In this document: piece after piece, positions 23,418 to 40,044 of the stretch | Layout: the number at the start of each line of letters is the position of its first letter | Numbering within the stretch: position 1 is the first letter of the stretch | NCBI RefSeq assembly: GCF_002854065.1 | Contig: NZ_CP024147.1 | DNA: 64,000 nucleotides | From: Escherichia coli | Lineage (GTDB): Bacteria > Pseudomonadota > Gammaproteobacteria > Enterobacterales > Enterobacteriaceae | Direction: 5' to 3' (one strand) | Position numbers and translations under genes: made by a program | The notes under the pieces: generated by a model | What the model was told of the DNA's origin: nothing | Seen by the model: the letters and a program-made list of their open reading frames with translations, nothing else | The model's database searches: none

Positions 23418-24563
23418 TTAGAGCACTTCTTGCATTGTGAGTTTATTATAGATTTGAACGGTTTTTCGTATGACAACGGTAGATGAATACTTTTCCTCTA
23501 CTCGCTTTCTGGCATTCTGCCCCATCTTAGTGCGCTCAAGAGGATCGCTAATAAGGATACCAAGCTTCTGAGAAAATAGGTTCACATTTCCTTTAGGCAC
23601 AAGGAAACCGTTATAACCGTCAAGTATTAAACTCCCACAACCACCAGTGTCAAAACTTATAACAGGACGACCGATTGCACCGGCTTCTAAAAGAATTCGA
23701 GGAATACCTTCAGAGTAAACAGATGGCAAAGCGACTATATCCACACTTTCAATTAATTCCTTGATATCGCTACGCTTGCCCAGCCAAATGATATCACCGG
23801 AGTTATGCCACTCTTCTATCTGAGTTATACTTATAGCGTCGCGATCATTGTCAACAAGAATGCCCGCAACTAATATCTCAAATTCGATGCCTTGTAATTT
23901 TAAAATTCTACTAGCATCAATTAACGTGCGTAGCCCTTTACTCCAAAGCATGCGACTTGCAAAAAAAACTTTAACCTTGGTATTATTAGGTGGTGTACTA
24001 TAACAAAAATAGTCTATATTAATACCTGCGCCATCAATAACTTCAGTTTTATTTTTTGGAATATCTAATAGTTCAATTATTTTTTGCTGATCTTTTTTAT
24101 GTTCAAAGAGGATACAACAATCAATATTTAAGAAAAATCTTCTATACATATTAGCAATTAAGAACTTAACCATTTGGTAAATGACCTTATTGCTTTCAAA
24201 AACTCTACCTAACCCAACAAAACTATAGACCATTTTTTTGTTTCGGATTCTGGCCCATAAACAACTAATCACACCAGGTTTAATCGTGACGCTATGCACA
24301 ATATCAGGATTAATTTTATTCAATGTTCTAAATGAGCGAGTTATATCGCAAAAGAAAACAACAGGATTGATATTTTGCTCTTTTATTTTACTATCAATAC
24401 ACTTAAATCCTAAACTAGTAAAGCGATCCAGAATAGACTTGTCAGAATAATTCGCAAAAATATAGACATCATATCCTGCTTCCAGAACTGATAAGGCACG
24501 ATCTAACCAATGTAATTCGAAATACCAAGCGGAGTTCACAAAATAACATATCTTTATTTTCAT
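23418..24563 (-). CDS. Glycosyltransferase, family 1 (GT4-like)
   Basis: 381 aa with C-terminal GT1 motifs (SEGIPRILLEAGAIGRPVIS); AT-rich. Confidence 0.75.
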   Translation of the reverse strand: MKIKICYFVNSAWYFELHWLDRALSVLEAGYDVYIFANYSDKSILDRFTSLGFKCIDSKIKEQNINPVVFFCDITRSFRTLNKINPDIVHSVTIKPGVISCLWARIRNKKMVYSFVGLGRVFESNKVIYQMVKFLIANMYRRFFLNIDCCILFEHKKDQQKIIELLDIPKNKTEVIDGAGINIDYFCYSTPPNNTKVKVFFASRMLWSKGLRTLIDASRILKLQGIEFEILVAGILVDNDRDAISITQIEEWHNSGDIIWLGKRSDIKELIESVDIVALPSVYSEGIPRILLEAGAIGRPVISFDTGGCGSLILDGYNGFLVPKGNVNLFSQKLGILISDPLERTKMGQNARKRVEEKYSSTVVIRKTVQIYNKLTMQEVL

Positions 24564-24718
24564 ATTTAAAACTCACATCTCCTTCCTTAAGCTATTATCC
24601 TGTTAAAATTTAAAACCTCAGCACGTCATCTTATACTTCGAAGAAAATATCAGTTTTAAATAAAGCAAAACAAATCATCCCTGATTTGTTTGTGAATCAA
24701 AATAAAGACTATTACAAA

Positions 24719-26878
24719 TCACCAACACACAAGCATGTATTCATACACCAGATCACGCTCAGGCTGGAGGTGAACAAACTTGAATTGATAACCCATATTG
24801 AGATTTTCAACAAATTTCTTACATTCAAAAATTTGCTCTGGCTGCAACCACAAGTGATAAACAGAAATCAGCAACACGGGCTTGTGTTTTTTGATTGTCT
24901 CGATTGCACCATTAAGGGCATTAATCTCATAGCCTTCAATATCGAATTTAATCAAACCAACACGATCTTCAAACGTCAGACTATCAATAGTGACCGATTG
25001 AACTTTAATGTCAGACTGCTCGTCTTCAACAACACATGAGCCTACTCCATCATCCCCAACTTTCATCATCGAAAGTTCGCCAGATACATTGCTGACAGCA
25101 ACATTTAAGGGTTTAATAGTATCATTTAAATATTGATGATTACGCTCAAGATTCCGAACCATACAGTTATAATTATCAGCTACAGGTTCTAAGGCAAGTA
25201 CTTCTTTAAATCCAAAGCTAGCGAACATGATAGCTGTATCACCAACCCAAGCCCCACAATCTATAGCAACAGAGCCTTTGAATTCTTCAGTGAATCGGCC
25301 TGGAAGATACTTCAAGCCAGCTTTGAAATAGTTGGTTGCTAGAGTAACCGGTAATTCAGATAGATCAAGATGCTGAATTAATTCTTTTTCGTGACGTAAG
25401 ATTGAATCAATATTTGACAATATAACTCTATCTTCATCCGTAAATAATGTTAAAGATAAAGGTAATTCCAACTCAATGCCTTGATGTTCAAAGTATGGCA
25501 GTAATTCATAAAAACCAAATAATTTCCTCTCATTTTGAAGGCTAAATTCATCAAGGCCGCGTTTGAATTCTTCACGTAGTTTAGAGATCCGAGAGGAATT
25601 TACCTTCATGTAATAATAAAACTGGTTAGTAGGCGCTACTTTTATTAGTACAGAACCATTTTTATTCTGTCCTGAAATGACATCGACTTTATCAGTAAGT
25701 TCTTTCGACATCTTCAAAAATGAAGAATCTAACTCCTCCCGAAAATGTTTGGAAAGTAAAGATGAGGAGGAATCCATTTTTGATGAAACAGCATTAATAA
25801 TTGGTTCAATTATTAATTTGTTAGTAATAAAACGTAGTTTGGAAACGACTTTCTTTTTAATCCTGTTTCTTGTCTGAACTGTTTTTATAATCCTGTTACT
25901 CATCAACTCATTATAAATTGGAAGAACATGATTATAATAATAGTCATTTGTATCGGAGGAAAATGAAACATTAGAAGTTACTGGCTGGAAACCTTCTTCT
26001 TTAGCCTGTTCAAAAACAGCAATAGCAGCTTCCTGATATGACTTCAATCCATCGCCTCTCAAACGAGAAGAATGGAAAACTAAATCAAAAAGATGGTGAA
26101 AATAAAAATGATTCAGGTATTTTTGAAACGTTCCAACACTAAGAAGGTGTTTTTTTATAATATCATAATTATTAAAAGATATTAATGCCTTGTCAGCACT
26201 AGCACTGGATGAGCCCACGTTCATGACCCTGTAGTTATAAACAGGCACATTCAAAAGAGTTATCTTTTCTACAGAGGCATAGGTGATGAATTTAAAGGGC
26301 ATATCCTGATATGAAGCCCCAGGACTTTCATAGAAGCGAATATGATTTTCTTCAAGAAAATCTCTTCTATACAAGCCAGTCCAGATTGATGATTCAAGCA
26401 AGAAAAGCTCAACTGAATTTTCTGGTACAATTTCTGCCAAGTTATCATTATCAAATGTACATAAATGCGCAAGGGACTGAGTATTGATTACAACTTCATT
26501 ACTTATTCTATTGAAACTTGCTTTAATGACCGGATTCGGGATTTTATTATAAGCGTCTATTAGACGCTCAAACATATCAAGCTGAACCCAATCGTCTGTT
26601 TCGATGATAGAAATAAAATCGCCGCTTGCAACATCTAGCCCAGAGTTGATTGCAGCTCCGTAACCTGCGTTTTTTTTATGGATAGCAATAATTCTTGTAT
26701 CGCTCGAAGCGTATCGATCAATAATCTGAGGGCAAGCATCAGGGCTACCGTCATTGACTATTATTATTTCCAGATTCTTATATGTTTGAGACAGAACACT
26801 GTCGAGACATTGCTCTAAATAAACTTCGCCGCCGTATACAGGTAAAATAACGGAAATTTTAAAGATATCATCACCCAT
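24719..26878 (-). CDS. Multidomain protein: N-terminal GT2 glycosyltransferase, central linker, C-terminal FkbM-family methyltransferase
   Basis: N-terminus ISVILPVYGGEVYLEQCLDSVLSQTY...ETDDW (GT2, DxD); C-terminus AIDCGAWVGDTAIMFASFG...FDIEGYE (FkbM-like SAM methyltransferase); ~180-aa region between them of unknown fold. Confidence 0.7.
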   Translation of the reverse strand: MGDDIFKISVILPVYGGEVYLEQCLDSVLSQTYKNLEIIIVNDGSPDACPQIIDRYASSDTRIIAIHKKNAGYGAAINSGLDVASGDFISIIETDDWVQLDMFERLIDAYNKIPNPVIKASFNRISNEVVINTQSLAHLCTFDNDNLAEIVPENSVELFLLESSIWTGLYRRDFLEENHIRFYESPGASYQDMPFKFITYASVEKITLLNVPVYNYRVMNVGSSSASADKALISFNNYDIIKKHLLSVGTFQKYLNHFYFHHLFDLVFHSSRLRGDGLKSYQEAAIAVFEQAKEEGFQPVTSNVSFSSDTNDYYYNHVLPIYNELMSNRIIKTVQTRNRIKKKVVSKLRFITNKLIIEPIINAVSSKMDSSSSLLSKHFREELDSSFLKMSKELTDKVDVISGQNKNGSVLIKVAPTNQFYYYMKVNSSRISKLREEFKRGLDEFSLQNERKLFGFYELLPYFEHQGIELELPLSLTLFTDEDRVILSNIDSILRHEKELIQHLDLSELPVTLATNYFKAGLKYLPGRFTEEFKGSVAIDCGAWVGDTAIMFASFGFKEVLALEPVADNYNCMVRNLERNHQYLNDTIKPLNVAVSNVSGELSMMKVGDDGVGSCVVEDEQSDIKVQSVTIDSLTFEDRVGLIKFDIEGYEINALNGAIETIKKHKPVLLISVYHLWLQPEQIFECKKFVENLNMGYQFKFVHLQPERDLVYEYMLVCW

Positions 26879-28199
26879 TGTCTTTCAAAACCTTTCGCAA
26901 AGTGGATTGGAAATTATAGCGCTGATTAAAGTTGGCAAAGACATTTCGACTATGAGTAGCCATGTTAATGAGCTCATCTTTTTTAAGCGATGTAATGAAC
27001 TCAGCACACTTTTGCGCAGATTCGATCTGATGGTACGCTTCTGTCGACTCAATCCCTTCCATAGCAGCTTTAGTTGAAACTAATGGAACACCATAAGAAA
27101 GCGCCTCCAGACATTTAACTTTCAACCCTGAAAGTAATTCATCTGGATTGATAATTACATCGCAGGAATGGTAGAACTTATCAAGGCTCTCACAAAAACC
27201 GAGGATATTAACAAAACCAGGGTACTGTCTACCTTCAAGAGCTCCGCAAATTGTTCCTGAAATATCGAGTCTTACATTATGATCAAGTTTACTTAAGCTA
27301 TCGATAAAATTGTTGATCGCAACGACATTTGGATAGTGCCCAGAGGCCATAAAGCCAACAACGATCTTTTTATTGGATGTTGGGACATAATCAATAAAGT
27401 TTACGTCCAGAATAGGTGGCTGAACAATGACTTGGGAACTAACATTCTCCCTGAAGTAACGGCCTTCTGCTTCTTGAATAGCAAATATATAATTAGCTCT
27501 TGATAACCCAATGGTTTCTTCTTTCTTCGATGTAGAGAAATAGAATTTATCTTGTGAAATACCAATTTTTGCCATTCGAGTGTTCCTCTTAGCAAAAACA
27601 TCGTGAGTATCGATCACTGAGACTGTATTAGGTTTAAGGTATAAACACAATTTTGACAGGAAGACATAATTAACAATTGCAATCTGATAATTATTCATCG
27701 CAGAAAGTGCAGCAACAAATTGACATATTTCATCATCAAGCCAATCGTCAATTTTATTTCCATCAGGAATTATTTGCTGATTGACATCGTGTCTTAGAGT
27801 GCCGAACTTTCCGTTCCGACATTTTATATTATAAGTATAATCCCAATCAACACTATTTGAATCCCAAGGTGAATTATTGAAAACAATAGCGTGAATTGTG
27901 AATCCTAGGGATTTTAATGTCGCAATTTTTGTATCAATATTTTTCCCGACGGCATCATTTCCATAAAAAGGCATAATGACTAGCGCATTTTTATCTGAAC
28001 TTGACTTTAAAATTTTTGGAAAAACAGTAAATTCATTTGCATTTTGTTCAGCATTAACGTTCAACGCTTTAATTAATAACCGCCTTGGGTAATGAGCGTT
28101 AACCATGAGGGCAAATAATTTCCAAAGCTTACGTGCGAGCCTGGTATACCTGAATTTAACAAAAGCTTTCTTCAAAAATCTGGTGATTGTGTTTTTCAT
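26871..28199 (-). CDS. Glycosyltransferase, family 1, with N-terminal domain of unknown function
   Basis: 442 aa; C-terminal GT1 motif (KCLEALSYGVPLVSTK); N-terminal ~200 aa unassigned. Confidence 0.7.
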   Translation of the reverse strand: MKNTITRFLKKAFVKFRYTRLARKLWKLFALMVNAHYPRRLLIKALNVNAEQNANEFTVFPKILKSSSDKNALVIMPFYGNDAVGKNIDTKIATLKSLGFTIHAIVFNNSPWDSNSVDWDYTYNIKCRNGKFGTLRHDVNQQIIPDGNKIDDWLDDEICQFVAALSAMNNYQIAIVNYVFLSKLCLYLKPNTVSVIDTHDVFAKRNTRMAKIGISQDKFYFSTSKKEETIGLSRANYIFAIQEAEGRYFRENVSSQVIVQPPILDVNFIDYVPTSNKKIVVGFMASGHYPNVVAINNFIDSLSKLDHNVRLDISGTICGALEGRQYPGFVNILGFCESLDKFYHSCDVIINPDELLSGLKVKCLEALSYGVPLVSTKAAMEGIESTEAYHQIESAQKCAEFITSLKKDELINMATHSRNVFANFNQRYNFQSTLRKVLKDNG

Positions 28200-28726
28200 A
28201 ATGGAATAGATAACAGATCAGAATAAACTGGATATGTGGCATAACCTACAGCAGGAATCTGATGGCCCGTCTCAACTAAAAAAACTCGGCCCAACCCAAA
28301 CTTTAATCCGGCTTCTACATCACCCAGTTTATCACCAACAATAAAAGATTGTTTTAAGTCAATGGAATAATCACGAGCTGCAGACTCGAACATACCCGTA
28401 TTAGGTTTGCGGCACGAACAATCACATCGATATTCAGGGACAATTCCATCTGGATGATGAGGGCAATAATAGATATCTAATATATCGATACCCTGTGATT
28501 TCAAGATACCCCTATACCACTTTGTCAATTTATCATAATCAGATAAGGTGTAATATCCTTTGGCAATTCCGGCCTGATTTGTCACAATGATTATTTTATA
28601 ACCATGAGCAATAAATCTTTTCATGCCACTGATACAGTTTTTGGTAAATTCAAAATCTTCAATTTTATATAGATAATTGACTTCCTTATTAATTACACCA
28701 TCGCGATCAAGAAATGCCACTTTCAT
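28196..28726 (-). CDS. gmhB: D-glycero-D-manno-heptose 1,7-bisphosphate phosphatase (HAD family)
   Basis: 176 aa, FLDRDGVIN HAD motif I; within heptose gene block. Confidence 0.8.
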   Translation of the reverse strand: MKVAFLDRDGVINKEVNYLYKIEDFEFTKNCISGMKRFIAHGYKIIIVTNQAGIAKGYYTLSDYDKLTKWYRGILKSQGIDILDIYYCPHHPDGIVPEYRCDCSCRKPNTGMFESAARDYSIDLKQSFIVGDKLGDVEAGLKFGLGRVFLVETGHQIPAVGYATYPVYSDLLSIPL

Positions 28727-29400
28727 TTAAATCTCTCACATGCAATGAAATAATCTTCAGGAATTCCTATATCGATAAAATATGAGGAATTAACGTAGGC
28801 CTTAAACTCTCCTTTGAATTTAGGCAAAAAATCAGATTCAAAAGAAAATTTATTCCCAGCAAACTTGCTCATAATTTCCTTTGAGACAATATAAATTCCA
28901 CTGTTAATAATTCCAGGGCCAGTTCTTCCCTTTTCTACCATAGCATTAACATTAGATTTCTCATCTAAATCTAAACTACCATAACGAGCGACATCATTAA
29001 CTTCGACACCAGATATTAGAAGATCTGTTCCCTTCGAAGCTTCTATGAAGTCACTATAATTAAGCTCGCAGTACGTATCACCATTAAGAACAATGAATTT
29101 ATCCGTTCTGACTTTAGAACTGGCATATTTAATTGCGCCACCAGTTCCTAGAGGTTCTTTTTCGACAACAAAGTCAACCTCACAACCAACAGGGTTGTCA
29201 TGGACAACCCTGTCGATGATATAGTCAGCTTTGTAGGATAATGATAGTATAATTCTGGTAGCTCCTTGTTTTTCAAGATACGTCATTAGACGATAAAGAA
29301 ATGGTTGCCCTGAAATATCTACCATTGGCTTAGGAAGCTCGCCACTAACACTCTTCAGACGAGTACCTAGCCCTCCTGCCAAAATAACTACATCATACAT
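28723..29400 (-). CDS. hddC: D-glycero-alpha-D-manno-heptose 1-phosphate guanylyltransferase
   Basis: 225 aa nucleotidyltransferase (VILAGGLGTRL); context with hddA/gmhA/gmhB. Confidence 0.7.
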   Translation of the reverse strand: MYDVVILAGGLGTRLKSVSGELPKPMVDISGQPFLYRLMTYLEKQGATRIILSLSYKADYIIDRVVHDNPVGCEVDFVVEKEPLGTGGAIKYASSKVRTDKFIVLNGDTYCELNYSDFIEASKGTDLLISGVEVNDVARYGSLDLDEKSNVNAMVEKGRTGPGIINSGIYIVSKEIMSKFAGNKFSFESDFLPKFKGEFKAYVNSSYFIDIGIPEDYFIACERFK

Positions 29401-29402
29401 AA

Positions 29403-29993
29403 TTATTTATCTTCTGGTTTGAAAATGGCACGTTCAACAATTGCGCAGATCATATGACCAATGCAAATATGGCATTCTTGAATGTATGGTGTAATTTTAG
29501 AAGGTACATTAATTGAATAGTCTACCAAATCTTTAAGCTTACCTGCTTCACCACATAGCGCCACGCTTGTCACACCCAGTTCTTTTGCCAGTTCCATCGC
29601 GTTAATGATATTAACGGAGTTACCTGAAGTACTGATGCCAATGAAAACATCACCTGGCTTGCTTTGAGCTTGCAGTTGTCTTGCAAATAGTTTATCAAAT
29701 CCGTAGTCATTGCCGATAGCCGTTAGCATCGAGGTATCAGTGGTGATAGCAATGGCTGGTAATCCTGGTCTATCGAAAAAGAAGCGACTGACGAACTCAG
29801 CCGCGATATGCTGAGAATCAGCAGCACTACCACCATTCCCGGCAAGAATTACTTTATTCCCGTTTTTATATGCATTGATAATCAAATCTGCAACTAAAGA
29901 GATTTGGCTCAATACACTGTCAGATTCCTGAAGCAATTTTTTTACTGCAATGCTGTCATCAAGATATGCTTTAATATAATTTACATTGTCCAT
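29403..29993 (-). CDS. gmhA: Sedoheptulose 7-phosphate isomerase (SIS domain)
   Basis: 196 aa; GNGGSAADSQH motif. Confidence 0.8.
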   Translation of the reverse strand: MDNVNYIKAYLDDSIAVKKLLQESDSVLSQISLVADLIINAYKNGNKVILAGNGGSAADSQHIAAEFVSRFFFDRPGLPAIAITTDTSMLTAIGNDYGFDKLFARQLQAQSKPGDVFIGISTSGNSVNIINAMELAKELGVTSVALCGEAGKLKDLVDYSINVPSKITPYIQECHICIGHMICAIVERAIFKPEDK

Positions 29994-31009
29994 GAATATG
30001 CTCCATCCTCGACAAATTGGAATTTATAGACTTCGCCACCAAACTCTTGTAGTTTACGTTCGATCAACTGTTTTCGCTCCGGTTCAACGAATAGCATCAT
30101 AAAACCACCGCCACCGGCACCTGAAACTTTCATTGACTTAACACCGATACTAAACACTTCCTTCTCGATTTTCTCAATCATCGGATTACTGATTGACGAT
30201 GAGGTGTTTTTCTTACTTTCCCATGCATCCAGGAATGTCGCGGCCATAGCATCGATATCAGATTTGAGTAAGTGTTCTTTAATCTGATATGCTGATTCTT
30301 TAACTTTATGCATAGCCATCAGTTTAGACTCTTTGTCACTCTCTAAAGATCTAATCTGGTCATCAATAATTTTCGCAGAGTCTCTCGAAGCCCCTGTAAA
30401 ATAAAGAATCAGGGATGACTCTAACTCATTTATTATATATCTACGAATTCTAAGTGGGTTAACAATAACGCGATTACCTTCATAAAACTCCATGAAATTA
30501 AAACCACCAAATGTTGCAGCATACTGATCTTGTTTACCACCTGATAAACCACAGTCTACTCGCTCAATCTTGAATGCTAACTGGGCCAGATCATATTCTC
30601 CAAGAGGCAGAGAATACATTTGCCGTAGTCCTTCAAGCATTGAAACAACAACCGTCGATGATGACCCCAAACCGCTACCTGCAGGAGCGTCAGAATGAGT
30701 AATGATACGAACCGGTTTTAATTCGCCGTCAAAATAATCATTCATGACTCGAAGGTAAACTGCTCGATGCAGTTTTAGCTTCCCTTCAATCGTTACACCA
30801 TTGGTAAGATCAATCTCTTCTCTGATATTAAGGTCGGTTGCCTCAAAAATAACTTTACTACCTTCAAGCTCATCATCAATGTAAGCATACGCATACATAT
30901 TGATGGTCGCATTCAGTACACACCCACCGAATGTATCGCTATAAGGTGAAACATCTGTCCCACCTCCTGCAATGCCTAAACGTAGAGGCGCTTTGCTTCT
31001 AACTTTCAT
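29981..31009 (-). CDS. hddA: D-glycero-alpha-D-manno-heptose 7-phosphate kinase (GHMP kinase)
   Basis: 342 aa GHMP kinase (PAGSGLGSSS); context. Confidence 0.7.
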   Translation of the reverse strand: MKVRSKAPLRLGIAGGGTDVSPYSDTFGGCVLNATINMYAYAYIDDELEGSKVIFEATDLNIREEIDLTNGVTIEGKLKLHRAVYLRVMNDYFDGELKPVRIITHSDAPAGSGLGSSSTVVVSMLEGLRQMYSLPLGEYDLAQLAFKIERVDCGLSGGKQDQYAATFGGFNFMEFYEGNRVIVNPLRIRRYIINELESSLILYFTGASRDSAKIIDDQIRSLESDKESKLMAMHKVKESAYQIKEHLLKSDIDAMAATFLDAWESKKNTSSSISNPMIEKIEKEVFSIGVKSMKVSGAGGGGFMMLFVEPERKQLIERKLQEFGGEVYKFQFVEDGAYSWTM

Positions 31010-31025
31010 AACAAAAGAATCCCTA

Positions 31026-32054
31026 TTAACGATTCAGAGGAATGCGGCCAGATGCGATTTCTTTTCTCCAGTGCTGGAGTAAATCACGAAACATATCTGT
31101 CGCTTTTATTTCTGGTTTCCAGTCAATGAAATTCCTGATTTTAGTATTATCAAACATTTGGTAATCGGCATCAATTGGACGCAGGCGATCTGTATCTGTA
31201 ACAACTTCAATATCGTCACGAGTGCTAAAGCTCAGTAAAAGGTCTATAACCTCAGGAAGTTTGAATGCTTCTTCACCTGCAATATTAAATGCTTCGCCGA
31301 AAGGAACATTCCCTTTTTCGCTCTCCAGAGCTAATAAATAGTATGCACGCACAGCGTCTCTAGCATCTTGGAAAGTACGTACGCTTGCTAAATTGCCAAC
31401 TTTTAATTTTGGTTCCTGATGTCCAGCTTCGATCAAGGCAATCTGCTTGGCAACAGTACTTTCGAAAAATACATCACTACGGCGTGGGCCTGTATGTGTG
31501 CCCATGCGAGTGATAAATGTACGCAACCCATATGCCTCGCCATAAAAACGCCCTAAATAATCGGTACCAATTTTACTAATGCTGTAAGGGCTAGCGCCAT
31601 GGAACTGCGTATCTTCGTTTAAAGCTTCACCTACTTTTGCTCTACCATAAACTTCACTAGAAGAACAAACATGAACAACAGGATCATAACCATCTTGTTG
31701 TTTTAGTTTTTTAATGCATTCCAACAGATTGGCAGTACCAATAATATTGGTCTGCAAGGTCTCGATCGGAATATCGAATGAGGTGCGGGGAAATGACTGC
31801 GCAGCAAGGTGGAAAATGAATTTTGGACGCTTCGCTTCAATTAAGTTATACATGGAAGTATAGTCATTAAGGTCTGCGTATTGGATGAATACTCTATCCT
31901 TTTTATTAATCCGGTCTGTTAAATGATAGATATTATCCATTGGCTCTTGCCAACGCATCATTCCAATTACTGTGTCGGTTGTATTCTCTAAAATATAATC
32001 TGCTAATTGAGAACCAACTTGTCCAGTGAATCCTGTAATTAATACATTATTCAT
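31026..32054 (-). CDS. dmhA: GDP-sugar 4,6-dehydratase (Gmd family); predicted GDP-D-glycero-D-manno-heptose 4,6-dehydratase
   Basis: 342 aa SDR-extended dehydratase adjacent to GDP-heptose genes; not in the colanic acid gmd/fcl block. Confidence 0.6.
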   Translation of the reverse strand: MNNVLITGFTGQVGSQLADYILENTTDTVIGMMRWQEPMDNIYHLTDRINKKDRVFIQYADLNDYTSMYNLIEAKRPKFIFHLAAQSFPRTSFDIPIETLQTNIIGTANLLECIKKLKQQDGYDPVVHVCSSSEVYGRAKVGEALNEDTQFHGASPYSISKIGTDYLGRFYGEAYGLRTFITRMGTHTGPRRSDVFFESTVAKQIALIEAGHQEPKLKVGNLASVRTFQDARDAVRAYYLLALESEKGNVPFGEAFNIAGEEAFKLPEVIDLLLSFSTRDDIEVVTDTDRLRPIDADYQMFDNTKIRNFIDWKPEIKATDMFRDLLQHWRKEIASGRIPLNR

Positions 32055-32060
32055 ATATGC

Positions 32061-32894
32061 TTACCCCTTAATAACGTTTAAATATGATTCACATGATCTA
32101 TCAAGAATAGATTCGAGAAAACGACTTTTGGTATTAATTTTTTTTGGCCTACCCAGCCAAAATGATTCTGGCGCATCTGTAAATTGATACTGCAGTTCTG
32201 GAAATTTTTCCTGCGCTAGCGCCAAAACAATCTGTTGTCGACTGACAAGATCCGGGCCGGAGAAATTAACGATGCGAGTATCAATTTGGCTCCAATTCAA
32301 TATAATATTTTTGATGCCTAACAATACATCATTAATTGAAACAACACTGCGCTCAAAACCATCAAATACATCTAATAATTTACTATTCAAACTGTGCTCT
32401 TTTACCATTTCAGAGAATTTATCACCTTTCCCTAAAATGTACGAAAATCGTATTACGAAGAACCCAGGGTTATTTGAAAAATGTTCTTCAACTTCACATT
32501 TCATTTGACCATATTTGCCAAATGGTTTTCGTTCTGACATTTCAGTGCACACATCAGATGTACCACCAAATACAACATCACTTGATGAGAAAATCACTCG
32601 CGCATTTTTTTTAAGTAATTCAGATATCAAAGTAATTGTATTTTTCACATTAATCTTATGCGCAACGTCATAGTTTTTCTCACATTGATCAGGCGCAGAG
32701 ACTGCTGAAAGAAAAATGATGGTGTCATCATTGTTTACTTGATCCAGTAAATCATTAAATTCACCAGTTTCCAGATCAAAATGAATATCTGAATTTTTTC
32801 TTCCAACTGTTACCAGCGAAAAAGCATCACTAAGAAATGATTTAAGATGATTACCAACGTAACCAGTAGACCCTAGAATGAATACTTTTCTCAT
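32061..32894 (-). CDS. dmhB: NAD(P)-dependent sugar-nucleotide reductase (RmlD-like); predicted GDP-4-keto-6-deoxyheptose reductase
   Basis: 277 aa SDR with GSTGYVG Rossmann motif; adjacent to dmhA. Confidence 0.55.
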   Translation of the reverse strand: MRKVFILGSTGYVGNHLKSFLSDAFSLVTVGRKNSDIHFDLETGEFNDLLDQVNNDDTIIFLSAVSAPDQCEKNYDVAHKINVKNTITLISELLKKNARVIFSSSDVVFGGTSDVCTEMSERKPFGKYGQMKCEVEEHFSNNPGFFVIRFSYILGKGDKFSEMVKEHSLNSKLLDVFDGFERSVVSINDVLLGIKNIILNWSQIDTRIVNFSGPDLVSRQQIVLALAQEKFPELQYQFTDAPESFWLGRPKKINTKSRFLESILDRSCESYLNVIKG

Positions 32895-32967
32895 ACTCAG
32901 TTACCAAATTATACGAAGTGAAGATGTATGCACATAAAATGCTATGAAGACAATTTTATCTGCCATT

Positions 32968-33942
32968 TTAATAACCGACGGATAGCTCAAATACACCGTC
33001 ATGATCTTTGGTATCTTTAAATTTAATTTTATAAATTTTATTATGATTAAGGCGAAGCCAGAAACTGTTGTCTTTAATGGATACTCTTTCCCAATCACTT
33101 GTTGTGGTTTTAAAACTGACGGAGACCACATCAACATCAATATTAAAATTAACATCTGAATATTCAGCTGTTGGATTTATATCTCCAACCTTAAAAGCTA
33201 CTGTTTCAGTATTTTTGTATTCCAGGAGCTTAAGCCCATAACTTGTCAGTTTCATAATCAAATTATATTTATTGTATACACTGTCACTTGGACCTTCATC
33301 CAGAACAACACCGTTTTCAATGCAAACAAGTCGATCGGAAAGGAGCTTCAACTGGTGTTCGTCATGCGAAACGATGACGACTGTTGTGTCTGACTTTATT
33401 TTTTCACGAATGCTTTTTTGTGCTTTCTCTGCAAAAGTCACGTCACCGACACCCAGTACTTCATCAATTAACAGAACTTCAGGGGTAGTATACATGGCAA
33501 TTGAGAAACCCAAACGTGCTAGCATACCTGATGAATAATTTTTAATTGGTTTTTCGAAGAACTCATTAAGCTCTGAATATACTTTGATGTCTTCAATAAT
33601 TGATTTGATATAAGACAATCTATGACCGAGGACCATTCCACTAAAGATAGTATTCTGACGACCTGATAAGTTGGGATCAAATCCTGCCTGAAGGGCCATT
33701 AGAGAAATACTGTTTGAATGAATAGTTATTTGCCCAGAATCAGGCTTAATAATACCCGCCAGAACTCGTAGTAATGTAGATTTCCCTGCTCCATTACGCC
33801 CAATTATTCCAAGAGTTTCGCCACGATAAACATCGAATGTAATGTTTGTCAAAGCTTCATATTCATCGTAAGTAAAGAGTGTTTTCTTTTCTCTATAAAC
33901 TAAACCTACGTTTTTTAGCTCAATAATCTTTTCATTCTTCAT
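32968..33942 (-). CDS. wzt: O-antigen ABC transporter ATP-binding protein with C-terminal extension
   Basis: Walker A GRNGAGKST, ABC signature SSGM, Walker B LLIDE; ~85 aa beyond the NBD. Confidence 0.85.
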   Translation of the reverse strand: MKNEKIIELKNVGLVYREKKTLFTYDEYEALTNITFDVYRGETLGIIGRNGAGKSTLLRVLAGIIKPDSGQITIHSNSISLMALQAGFDPNLSGRQNTIFSGMVLGHRLSYIKSIIEDIKVYSELNEFFEKPIKNYSSGMLARLGFSIAMYTTPEVLLIDEVLGVGDVTFAEKAQKSIREKIKSDTTVVIVSHDEHQLKLLSDRLVCIENGVVLDEGPSDSVYNKYNLIMKLTSYGLKLLEYKNTETVAFKVGDINPTAEYSDVNFNIDVDVVSVSFKTTTSDWERVSIKDNSFWLRLNHNKIYKIKFKDTKDHDGVFELSVGY

Positions 33943-34712
33943 TTCTGAACAACTCGTGGGAAGATGAATTCTAATCTCTTAAATGCATACAACGAAATAG
34001 AAATCATAATTAAAGAAAGCAGAACTACATATGCGAGCAGCTTAATATTTGGTGCATTATGATACATCAATACATCACGGTACGAACTAAGAATTACTGC
34101 CATCGGGTTAATGAAGAAAATCTTCGATTCCATCGCCGGTATACTTTTGTAATTGAAAAATATACCTGAGCAAAACATCATAATTTGAAGGCCGGTTTCA
34201 ATTACAAATGAAAAATCTCTGACAAAGGGAACAATGATTGACACTATCAAAGAAAATGCAACTATTAATAATAGCTGAACAAAAATGACTGGAATAATCC
34301 AAAGCAAGCCAAGAGTATAATCATAGCCGTACAAGACTAAAAAAATAAATAGCAGAATAAATACAAGTATCTGCTTTAACGCATCCTGCAATATAAATGT
34401 CAAAGGGAAGAATATCTTAGAAATATGTACCTGATTCATTAGGTACTTTCCTTGAATGATACTCCCTTGCGCATGACTAACGCTGCGACCAAACCATATC
34501 CAGGGGATCAGTCCAGTTAACAGGAATGGGACGTAATCATGACCACCTTGCTTAAGAAGATATGCAAAAACCAAATAGTAAATTGCCATTTGAAGGACTG
34601 GTTCGATAATCCACCAAGCATAACTTAAATAGTTTATTGATGCTTCTGATTTTAGATTAAGCTTTGCTTTAACCCAAACCAATTCAAGGGTTTTTAACGA
34701 CATGATACTCAT
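33939..34712 (-). CDS. wzm: O-antigen ABC transporter permease
   Basis: 257-aa ABC-2 type membrane protein; coupled to wzt. Confidence 0.85.
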   Translation of the reverse strand: MSIMSLKTLELVWVKAKLNLKSEASINYLSYAWWIIEPVLQMAIYYLVFAYLLKQGGHDYVPFLLTGLIPWIWFGRSVSHAQGSIIQGKYLMNQVHISKIFFPLTFILQDALKQILVFILLFIFLVLYGYDYTLGLLWIIPVIFVQLLLIVAFSLIVSIIVPFVRDFSFVIETGLQIMMFCSGIFFNYKSIPAMESKIFFINPMAVILSSYRDVLMYHNAPNIKLLAYVVLLSLIMISISLYAFKRLEFIFPRVVQK

Positions 34713-34713
34713 G

Positions 34714-37650
<2,937 letters not shown>

Positions 37651-37654
<4 letters not shown>

Positions 37655-38520
37655 TCACCTTTTGCACGTGCTATAATGTATTGACCATAATCATTTTTCT
37701 TCATAGGTAGTGCATTTTTTATTGCTTCTTCTTTGCTTAACCAACCATTTCTTAATGCAATCTCTTCAAGACATGCAACCTTGAGGCCCTGAACATTCTG
37801 GATGGTTTGCACGAAGGATGACGCTTCATGCAAACTTTCGTGGGTCCCTGTATCCAACCAAGCAAAACCACGCCCCAGTAGCTCTACGTTAAGAGTACCT
37901 TCTTTGAGATACATGTCATTAAGATCAGTAATCTCCAGCTCCCCTCTCACTGAAGGTTTAACTTTTTTAGCGAAATCGATAACGCGATTATCATAGAAGT
38001 AAAGTCCAGTGACTGCATAATTTGATTTTGGTTTTGACGGTTTTTCTTCAATAGATACAGCCCGCATCTCGCTATCAAATTCAACTACACCGAAGCGTTC
38101 AGGGTCTTTCACTTGATAACCAAATACTGTTGCACCGTATTCTCTTGCAACAGCATTCTGCAGGATTTTGATAAATGATTGGCCATAAAAAATATTATCA
38201 CCCAGCACCAAACAAACTTTATCGTTTCCTATAAATTTCTCACCAATGAGGAATGCCTGCGCTAATCCATCAGGGCTGGGTTGCACGGCATAATTAAGCC
38301 GAATACCAAAATTACTGCCATCACCGAGTAACCGCTGGAAACTCGCATTATCTTCTTCAGTGGTTATTATTAATATATCTTGAATACCCGCTAGCATAAG
38401 TGTGGAAAGCGGGTAATAAATCATTGGTTTATCATAGATTGGTAATAGTTGTTTTGATACACCACGAGTTATTGGATACAATCTAGTGCCAGAGCCGCCT
38501 GCTAAAATAATACCTTTCAT
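37651..38520 (-). CDS. rmlA: Glucose-1-phosphate thymidylyltransferase
   Basis: 289 aa [18 protein letters not shown]... Confidence 0.95.
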
Positions 38521-38532
38521 CTTTTATCCTTA

Positions 38533-39621
38533 CTACTCTACGAGCCCTAAGCGTTCACCAGCGTACGAACCATCCATCACACGCTGCCACCATTCTTTAT
38601 TATTTAAATACCAGTGAATGGTTTTAGTGATACCCGTTTCAAACGTTTCTTGCGGCACCCAACCTAAATCTTGTTTAATTTTACTGGCGTCAATGGCATA
38701 TCTAAGGTCATGCCCTGGACGATCGCTAACATACCGAATCAACTGTTCAAAATTTTCAATGCCATCTGGTTTATCTGCAATCAATTCATCGAGAATGCGA
38801 CAAATAGTTTTCACTACATCGATATTTTTACGTTCGTTATGACCACCAATATTATATGTTTCTCCCGGCACACCCTTTGTGACGACTTCATAAAGTGCCC
38901 GGGCATGATCTTCAACATATAACCAATCTCGAATTTGCTCACCGTTCCCATAAACAGGTAAAAGTTTACCCGCAATTGCATTCAGAATAATTAACGGAAT
39001 GAGTTTTTCAGGGAAATGGTACGGCCCATAATTATTAGAACAATTTGTCACTATGGTGGGTAATCCATATGTACGCCGCCATGCACGAACTAAGTGATCA
39101 CTGGATGCCTTAGAGGCGGAATATGGACTGCTAGGGGAATATGAAGTTTGTTCTGTAAACAATGGCAATATTGTATCTGACGATACTTCATCCGGATGAG
39201 GAAGGTCACCATAAACCTCATCCGTAGAAATATGGTGGAAGCGAAATGCACCTTTGCGATCTTCACTAAGTGCTAGCCAATACTTACGAGCTTCTTCTAG
39301 TAAGATATATGTTCCAACAATATTGGTTTCAATAAAGTCTGCAGGGCCTGTGATTGAACGATCAACGTGGCTTTCGGCTGCCAAATGCATTATTGCATCT
39401 GGTTGGTGATGTGCAAAAATATTGGCTATTGCAACGCTGTCGCAAATATCCGCATGCTCAAATTTATACCGCTCGTTATTCTCAATCTCTGTCAGAGATT
39501 CCAAATTACCTGCATAGGTAAGTTTATCAACATTGATGACAGAGTCTTGCGTATTATTAATTATATGACGAACAACTGCAGACCCAATAAAACCTGCACC
39601 ACCTGTAACCAGTATTTTCAC
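38533..39621 (-). CDS. rmlB: dTDP-glucose 4,6-dehydratase
   Basis: 362 aa [21 protein letters not shown]... Confidence 0.95.
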
Positions 39622-39715
39622 TTTGAATTTCCGCTATGACTTATAACTTATGGCTTGATAATATGAATGTTTGTTAAGAACAATCTGAATATTAAAAAAG
39701 ACACTTATGATTAGA

Positions 39716-39754
39716 CACGCTACCGCCCCTGGCTCTCCAGCTACCAGCGCACTG
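39716..39754 (-). promoter_or_regulatory. JUMPstart element with ops site (GGCGGTAGCGT at 39717-39727), RfaH-dependent antitermination
   Basis: Minus-strand sequence CAGTGCGCTGGTAGCTGGAGAGCCAGGGGCGGTAGCGTG matches the 39-bp JUMPstart consensus; ~95 bp upstream of rmlB. Confidence 0.75.
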
Positions 39755-40044
39755 CACCTTCAATGATAAAAATCATTTATGTCAAGGTAAAAATCCGCAA
39801 CGACTCCCACCTGCAAACCCAAAAAATTTCGGCAACTATTTTCGTCTTAAATGCATTTGAACTCAAGGAAAAATCTTATAAACGATATGCAACGCCTACA
39901 TTTCTAACCTATTGTTATTTTTTACTTTGTTTTATGAAATAAAAAGGCAGTGAAGCTAGTAGTAGGTTACCCTACATACTTATGCCCATCTGCCGTTCTA
40001 AAACGCCGTTCTTAAATTTGCTTTATCGTTTACTGAGAAACGAC

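Follow-up and report, generated by a model that had tools for sequence, protein, structure and literature searches.

A compact C-terminal beta-sandwich of the Escherichia coli O52 Wzt protein as a candidate glycan-terminus recognition module outside the Wzt_C family

Recognition of a chain-terminating cap by the C-terminal module of Wzt is a quality-control step of ABC-transporter-dependent O-antigen export. The canonical module, Wzt_C, forms a dimer that is stabilised by exchange of the C-terminal strand. In all characterised terminated systems, the Wzt C-terminal module reads the cap and is needed for export (PMC11231755, PMC9445017), and Wzt proteins lacking an extension generally export uncapped glycans (PMC3989065), the rule of the field being that Wzt C-terminal extensions accompany chain-terminating caps (PMC11231755, PMC3989065, PMC9445017). 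In the O9a, O12 and Aquifex systems, recognition of the terminus by the Wzt carbohydrate-binding domain (CBD) precedes export, which is the model for the mechanism proposed below (PMC11231755, PMC9445017). In the Aquifex CBD, Trp362 stacks on the 3-O-methyl group while Asn and His hydrogen-bond the ring (PMC9445017). For O9a, a module provided in trans restores export, and a failure of export shows in O9a, O12, O4 and O7 as missing ligated O antigen together with a build-up of Und-PP-linked polymer inside the cell. Bioinformatic surveys of capped glycans lean on the signature of this module, PF14524.

The locus described here lies in a window of 64,000 nucleotides, the whole stretch of DNA that was analysed. 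Over 1101 nt, the wzt region matches four complete E. coli genomes at 100% identity. RefSeq labels the product there 'O52 family O-antigen export ABC transporter ATP-binding subunit' (WP_001575905.1), and on the strength of this identity to RefSeq-named O52 family genes the window carries the published E. coli O52 O-antigen cluster and the wzt gene itself is already known. The cluster, ~24–40 kb of the window (24000–40000), is a low-GC island (0.33–0.40 against 0.48–0.61 in the flanks) bounded by galF/wcaM on one side and gnd on the other. It contains rmlB, rmlA, fcf1, a glf-like mutase gene, a GT2 gene, wzm and wzt, as well as the GDP-6-deoxy-D-manno-heptose genes, two more glycosyltransferase genes and a gene for a GT2-FkbM fusion. 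The permease partner of Wzt, an ABC-2 protein, is encoded by wzm (33939..34712, minus strand; an open reading frame with the RefSeq name 'O52 family ... permease subunit'), whose reading frame overlaps wzt by 4 nt and whose product is 81–97% identical across orthologous clusters. An ops-type octamer, GGCGGTAG, is found at 39720–39727 (minus strand) in the galF–rmlB gap, ~100 bp upstream of rmlB, the expected place for a JUMPstart/RfaH element; its count alone, 2 in the window against 1.3 expected, does not exceed chance.

By gene content, the O52 locus resembles the polymerase-terminator systems of E. coli O8/O9a (WbdD) and K. pneumoniae O12 (WbbB), O4 and O7: wzm-wzt is accompanied by a terminator-type enzyme, here a predicted FkbM methyltransferase domain, Wzt carries an extra C-terminal domain, and, as in the WbdD and WbbB systems, a glycosyltransferase module is joined to the terminator-type enzyme via a long, here predicted, helical spacer. 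It differs from the WbdD/WbbB systems in that the putative terminator is an FkbM-family methyltransferase located C-terminal to GT2, the Wzt module comes from another family, and the cap is putative. The enzyme is a GT2-linker-FkbM fusion of 719 aa, a putative polymerase/terminator (24719..26878, minus strand), in which domain scans place GT2 at residues 5–228 and FkbM (TIGR01444, E 1.8e-26) at residues 538–673. The O52 repeat unit contains no methyl group, and the methyltransferase has been proposed as chain terminator (PMC7685785). The GT2 part (1–320) and the FkbM part (~416–719) are conserved across orthologues, and the linker between them (residues ~321–415; window 25634–25918) is poorly so, with a variable length that includes 19 additional residues in Cedecea and other indels in Vibrio. 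Terminator proteins typically contain an extended coiled coil that acts as a molecular ruler. The O52 linker is predicted as long helices (308–367 and 374–402) in a poor AlphaFold model (pLDDT 47.8); a crude scoring of heptads places it no higher than the shuffle threshold, and the invariant Pro359 interrupts the segment.

The wzt gene (32968..33942, minus strand), assigned from its open reading frame, RefSeq identity and the Pfam ABC_tran match, encodes the 324-aa ATP-binding subunit of the O52 O-antigen ABC transporter. ABC_tran spans residues 31–162, and the Walker A (48–56), Q-loop (84–87), signature (YSSGM, 136–140), Walker B (157–161) and H-loop (191–194) motifs are all located within the first 200 residues, in agreement with an earlier note on this DNA that had placed complete Walker A, signature and Walker B motifs inside ~240 aa. 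Motifs and alignment to the Aquifex Wzt delimit the nucleotide-binding domain (NBD) proper to residues 1–230 (33253..33942, minus strand): residues 25–231 align to Aquifex Wzt (8dku/6oih, E 1e-46), similarity to the solved NBDs of Wzt, TagH and mycobacterial RfbE ceases at residue 227–231, and close Wzt homologues without a C-terminal domain (228–266 aa) end a few residues past Tyr226. The end of NBD homology and the end of these short homologues therefore define a C-terminal extension of ~95 aa (~230–324). The same note had described an extension of ~85 aa at 32968–33250, an interval that corresponds to residues 231–324 plus the stop codon; its existence as a real, folded and coding segment stands, and its length is slightly greater than proposed. 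A predicted hinge helix (residues 222–236, VYNKYNLIMKLTSYG; 33235..33279, minus strand) joins the NBD to the C-terminal domain. It corresponds to a helix at model residues 2–13 (Wzt 223–234), and nearly all of its positions are invariant across 14 O52-type sequences. Within it, Tyr226 aligns with Aquifex Tyr233; we rejected this residue as a marker of glycan binding because it is also kept in Wzt proteins devoid of any C-terminal domain.

Beyond the hinge, AlphaFold2 predicts an eight-stranded beta-sandwich at residues 238–324 (32971..33231, minus strand; stop codon at 32968–32970). With an alignment of 14 non-identical O52-type tails (33–85% identical to E. coli) as input, the tail is modelled as one helix (223–234) followed by eight strands (~238–323) with a pLDDT of 92.4 and a pTM of 0.82, and the AFDB entry for this protein (Q6E7E8), an independent model, agrees with it at a TM of 0.90. 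Predicted disorder of residues ~240–324 would have spoken against a binding module; instead, these models confirm the tail as a well-folded Ig/FN3-like beta-sandwich of ~90 residues. A Foldseek search with the tail model ranked BhCBM56 at the top (E 8e-4, TM ~0.5), followed by FN3 and CBM31, and the AFDB50 structure search returned nothing significant except the protein itself. The fold likeness is generic Ig/FN3: the small Ig-like carbohydrate-binding modules CBM56 (5T7A, 6A6C) and CBM31 (2COV) resemble the tail weakly, reaching just TM ~0.5, and no family-level match to either was found. A TOBE or MalK-type regulatory domain gave no Pfam match and was not among the structural matches listed. 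The tail is genuine coding sequence and not read-through, since it is conserved in orthologues of seven genera and its dN/dS against the two closest orthologues is 0.21–0.29 in the sandwich, compared with 0.02–0.03 in the NBD and 0 in the hinge. These values place it under purifying selection about ten times looser than that on the NBD, that is, constrained yet fast-evolving.

The position of this domain is that of the canonical CBDs. Like those of E. coli O9a (2R5O), Raoultella terrigena (5HNO/5HNP) and Aquifex aeolicus (6O14/8DKY/7K2T/8DKU), it is a C-terminal fusion to the Wzt NBD that begins right behind the hinge helix, the Aquifex alignment ending at residue 231, inside that helix. Both the tail and Wzt_C are all-beta sandwiches that evolve faster than their NBD, and for both the wzm-wzt locus includes a gene for a putative chain-terminating methyltransferase. 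They differ in size, the O52 tail having ~87 aa and eight strands and Wzt_C ~150 aa; the suggestion that the extension is shorter than the canonical module holds, the K. pneumoniae O12 Wzt measuring 443 aa with Wzt_C at 294–405. They differ as well in detectable ancestry. Pfam scans of the full-length O52 Wzt, in which ABC_tran was the sole match, and of 14 O52-type domains taken singly contained no Wzt_C match even at E<=10; an NCBIfam scan gave no match, and the 14-sequence tail profile found no PDB chain at E<=10. An hhalign comparison of the O52-type tail alignment with an alignment of nine canonical CBDs (O12, 5HNO, 2R5O, Aquifex and five metagenomic PF14524 domains) gave a probability of 0.1%, and no Wzt CBD was present among the structural matches listed, nor did the tail superpose on the ~150-aa jelly-roll of the Wzt CBD. 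The controls behaved as expected of a family: the K. pneumoniae O12 wzt, taken from a PLSDB record, yielded Wzt_C at 7.6e-13, and its CBD alone detected 5HNO (7e-63), E. coli O9a 2R5O (9e-6) and the Aquifex CBDs (2e-3). Canonical Wzt_C domains of different specificity thus detect each other, whereas the O52 tail detects none. As a claim about descent, the idea of a divergent Wzt_C is mistaken, as each homology test failed (Pfam, PDB hmmsearch and phmmer, hhalign against PF14524, 2R5O, 5HNO and 6O14) while the controls worked. The tail is unrelated to Wzt_C at any detectable level and about half its size, and it is a folded, selected module missing from current domain libraries. A full-text literature search on the O52 Wzt C-terminal domain gave no match, the primary O52 paper being beyond its reach.

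Where this domain occurs was established with the full-length Wzt as query. The tail alone gave no match in a word-indexed search, and phmmer against 1.84 billion cluster representatives returned only the query itself and a 3288-aa acidic low-complexity tandem-repeat protein, apparently eukaryotic (P0002). The latter aligned in 19 pieces at 25% identity and was discarded as a compositional artefact; it is a caution on summed multi-domain scores obtained with short queries. The full-length query showed the tail to be common to proteins of 323–331 aa (66–100% identity overall) from Escherichia/Shigella, Kluyvera, Cedecea, Kosakonia, Izhakiella, Yersinia frederiksenii, V. cholerae and other Vibrio, and the tail was found only in O52-type clusters. 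The O52 gene order, GT2-linker-FkbM fusion included, is kept in five orthologous loci (L002, L004, L007, L011 and L012), each of which, like the window, has an FkbM-family domain (TIGR01444 or Pfam Methyltransf_21); the fusion is therefore present in 6/6 O52-type loci with enough flank, two further contigs that end too soon to show the methyltransferase being left out of this count. Co-variation of the tail with the methyltransferase, which the earlier note had proposed to look for, is borne out as co-occurrence but not as independent pairing, because all genes of the cluster are passed on together and the six loci represent one co-inherited cluster. The near-identical gene order in Enterobacterales and Vibrio is consistent with horizontal spread of the O52-type cluster.

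Across these clusters the sandwich domain diverges quickly, its identity being 26–32% when E. coli is compared with Yersinia or Vibrio. Between E. coli and Vibrio, the tail (34–38%) and the GT2-FkbM linker (35–36%) are the two most diverged segments, the others compared ranging from 51 to 86%, and over five orthologous clusters the identities of tail and linker run in parallel (81/79, 73/66, 50/40, 38/35 and 34/36%). One of these loci is distinct in its gene content. L011 (10975–11389), whose Wzt protein P0011 has the NCBI name Kluyvera cryocrescens, is without dmhB and dmhA, the two post-wzt genes, which encode a heptose 4,6-dehydratase and reductase for 6-deoxygenation, and has an IS1 between galF and rmlB. 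Because dmhB and dmhA are missing, this cluster should make D-glycero-D-manno-heptose instead of the 6-deoxy sugar. In divergence its Wzt tail does not exceed the tail of L012, a locus that retains the 6-deoxygenation genes.

Seven residues of the sandwich, N244, N256, Y261, D263, W295, R297 and Y304, are invariant in the 14 sequences, which are otherwise 33–85% identical. The 14-sequence alignment and strand periodicity together delimit a span with invariant, predicted solvent-facing residues (33052..33162, minus strand) from Y261 (33160–33162) and D263 (33154–33156) to W295 (33058–33060) and R297 (33052–33054), and N256 and Y304 flank or fall within it. V264/F266/I268 and F294/L296/L298 occupy hydrophobic core positions, and Y261/D263 and W295/R297 are presumably solvent-facing because they alternate with these core positions on their strands. 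The four residues presumably lie on the non-core faces of two strands and make up a candidate binding surface, exposure being predicted here from strand periodicity. An exposed Trp/Arg/Tyr/Asp set fits a sugar-binding face and would equally suit a protein interface.

A model based on these data and on the characterised systems is that the Ig-like sandwich (238–324), tethered to the NBD by the hinge helix, would act as a substrate-recognition module. Its ligand would be the non-reducing end of the completed Fucf/6-deoxy-heptose polymer on undecaprenyl-PP, an end that presumably carries an O-methyl group added by FkbM in the GT2-FkbM protein, and binding of this end would bring only finished chains to Wzm-Wzt, with ATP-driven export to follow. 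W295/R297 and Y261/D263 would then form the binding face, an aromatic residue stacking on the methyl group or sugar and the polar residues contacting hydroxyls. By analogy with other terminator systems we infer that a cap exists, that the tail binds it and that binding gates export, and it is the association of Wzt extensions with caps in these systems that makes recognition of a capped terminus the likeliest role of the tail. On the side of this role are a folded, selected tail in the canonical CBD position right behind the Aquifex-aligned hinge helix, an invariant aromatic/charged set despite the low domain identity to Yersinia and Vibrio, and a GT2-FkbM fusion in every O52-type locus with enough flank. 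Counting against it are the lack of Wzt_C homology, a generic Ig/FN3 fold with weak CBM matches, a co-occurrence with FkbM that comes from one cluster, the absence of a chemically reported methyl cap for O52, a linker heptad score not above shuffles and the L011 tail that is not specially diverged. Weighing these points, we give about an even chance to the tail being a minimal module for recognising the glycan terminus, an analogue of Wzt_C that shares no ancestry with it. A stronger proposal would make the tail the first member of another family of cap readers on O-antigen ABC transporters, one that has no structural relationship to Wzt_C and recognises a methylated terminus; this proposal is tentative, and we consider it somewhat doubtful.

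Fast divergence of tail and linker is also what a structural or docking element under loose constraint would show, and three other explanations deserve consideration. The tail could be an NBD appendage with no glycan specificity that serves structure, dimerisation or regulation; it would hold both Wzt subunits together or modulate ATPase activity, as the C-terminal domains of other ABC ATPases do. A contact between subunits is plausible because canonical Wzt CBDs are obligate dimers (PMC9445017), and a generic Ig/FN3 fold without a specific CBM relationship, fast evolution with just a handful of invariant residues, and conserved exposed residues that could be a protein interface just as well all suit such an appendage. 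However, the NBD has no generic need for a tail, since close Wzt homologues function without one, neither a TOBE or MalK-type fold nor a Pfam match was found, and the confinement of the tail to one glycan-specific cluster type favours a substrate-linked role; we regard this explanation as unlikely. In the second alternative, the tail would dock the transporter onto the biosynthetic complex and so couple the two, for example through the GT2-FkbM linker. Coupling of synthesis and export is known in K. pneumoniae O2a (PMC11231755), the linker varies in length and is helical by prediction, and it and the tail are the two fastest-evolving segments, diverging in parallel over five clusters. Parallel divergence is nevertheless also expected of any two weakly constrained segments, and known terminator systems recognise a glycan cap, not a protein contact, so docking appears to us improbable.

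In the third alternative, the tail would bind the repeat unit (the Fucf/6-deoxy-heptose backbone) or the lipid-linked primer and not a methylated terminus, FkbM just setting chain length or decorating the chain. No O52 cap is documented (PMC7685785), the terminal pyruvate of K. pneumoniae O1 is dispensable for export (PMC11231755), and the tail is not specially diverged in L011, the locus without 6-deoxygenation genes. Every characterised Wzt-attached module, on the other hand, reads a terminal cap, and a protein that bound the backbone could not tell finished from growing chains; we hold this to be more improbable still. Recognition of a capped terminus by the tail is, by analogy, the best available functional reading; it is unproven, and we hold it with moderate confidence as an experimentally tractable lead. 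If a second family of cap readers does exist, terminus-gated export evolved at least twice on the Wzt scaffold, PF14524-keyed surveys undercount capped systems, and the checkpoint is more widespread and more varied. The tail would also provide a minimal (~90 aa) model of methyl-sugar recognition and a role for the methyltransferase that is so far an orphan in the O52 cluster. Should the tail prove to be a dimerisation or docking element instead, O52 would break the rule by which a Wzt extension signals a cap reader.

The nearest NBD relatives after the O52-type group (51–67% identity) are Wzt proteins of 343–372 aa from Vibrionaceae/Marinomonas, here called group B, with tails of ~120 aa (Vibrio, Photobacterium, Psychromonas, Marinomonas). 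Group B shares with the O52-type Wzt the hinge motif (E/K)YN(L/I)N..FS.(F/Y)GL, followed by a beta-rich domain, and is set apart from O52-type tails by a conserved basic segment, GPTxTPGYKxRYP....A..ARYHxG. Homology between the two kinds of tail was rejected because the hhalign signal sits in the shared hinge helix, the probability falling from 87% to 0.4% once this helix is trimmed. Group B tails would thus be a separate class, with beta domains not demonstrably homologous to those of the O52 type as judged by these alignments. A contig profile search with a narrower group B alignment found one locus. Six group B loci were examined, with wzt at L005 10001–11047, L006 10001–11053, L014 1370–2404, L015 987–2042, L008 10001–11050 and L009 10001–11035. 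FkbM was seen in none of the six; sulfotransferase genes occur in four, including L005 and L006, which have PAPS-synthesis genes directly upstream of wzm, and a fifth encodes NeuB, a CMP-transferase and a polysialyltransferase-like protein, these associations being counted in tail-bearing loci only. The group B tail may recognise anionic chain ends, sulfated or ulosonic.

A further difference between clusters lies directly downstream of wzt. The E. coli O52 cluster has no acyltransferase gene of this kind, although the heptose in the published O52 structure is 2-O-acetylated. In two Vibrio-type O52-like clusters, an acyltransferase gene directly follows wzt, of the Acyl_transf_3 type in L007 (11001–12050) and of the MBOAT type in L013 (5454–6932).
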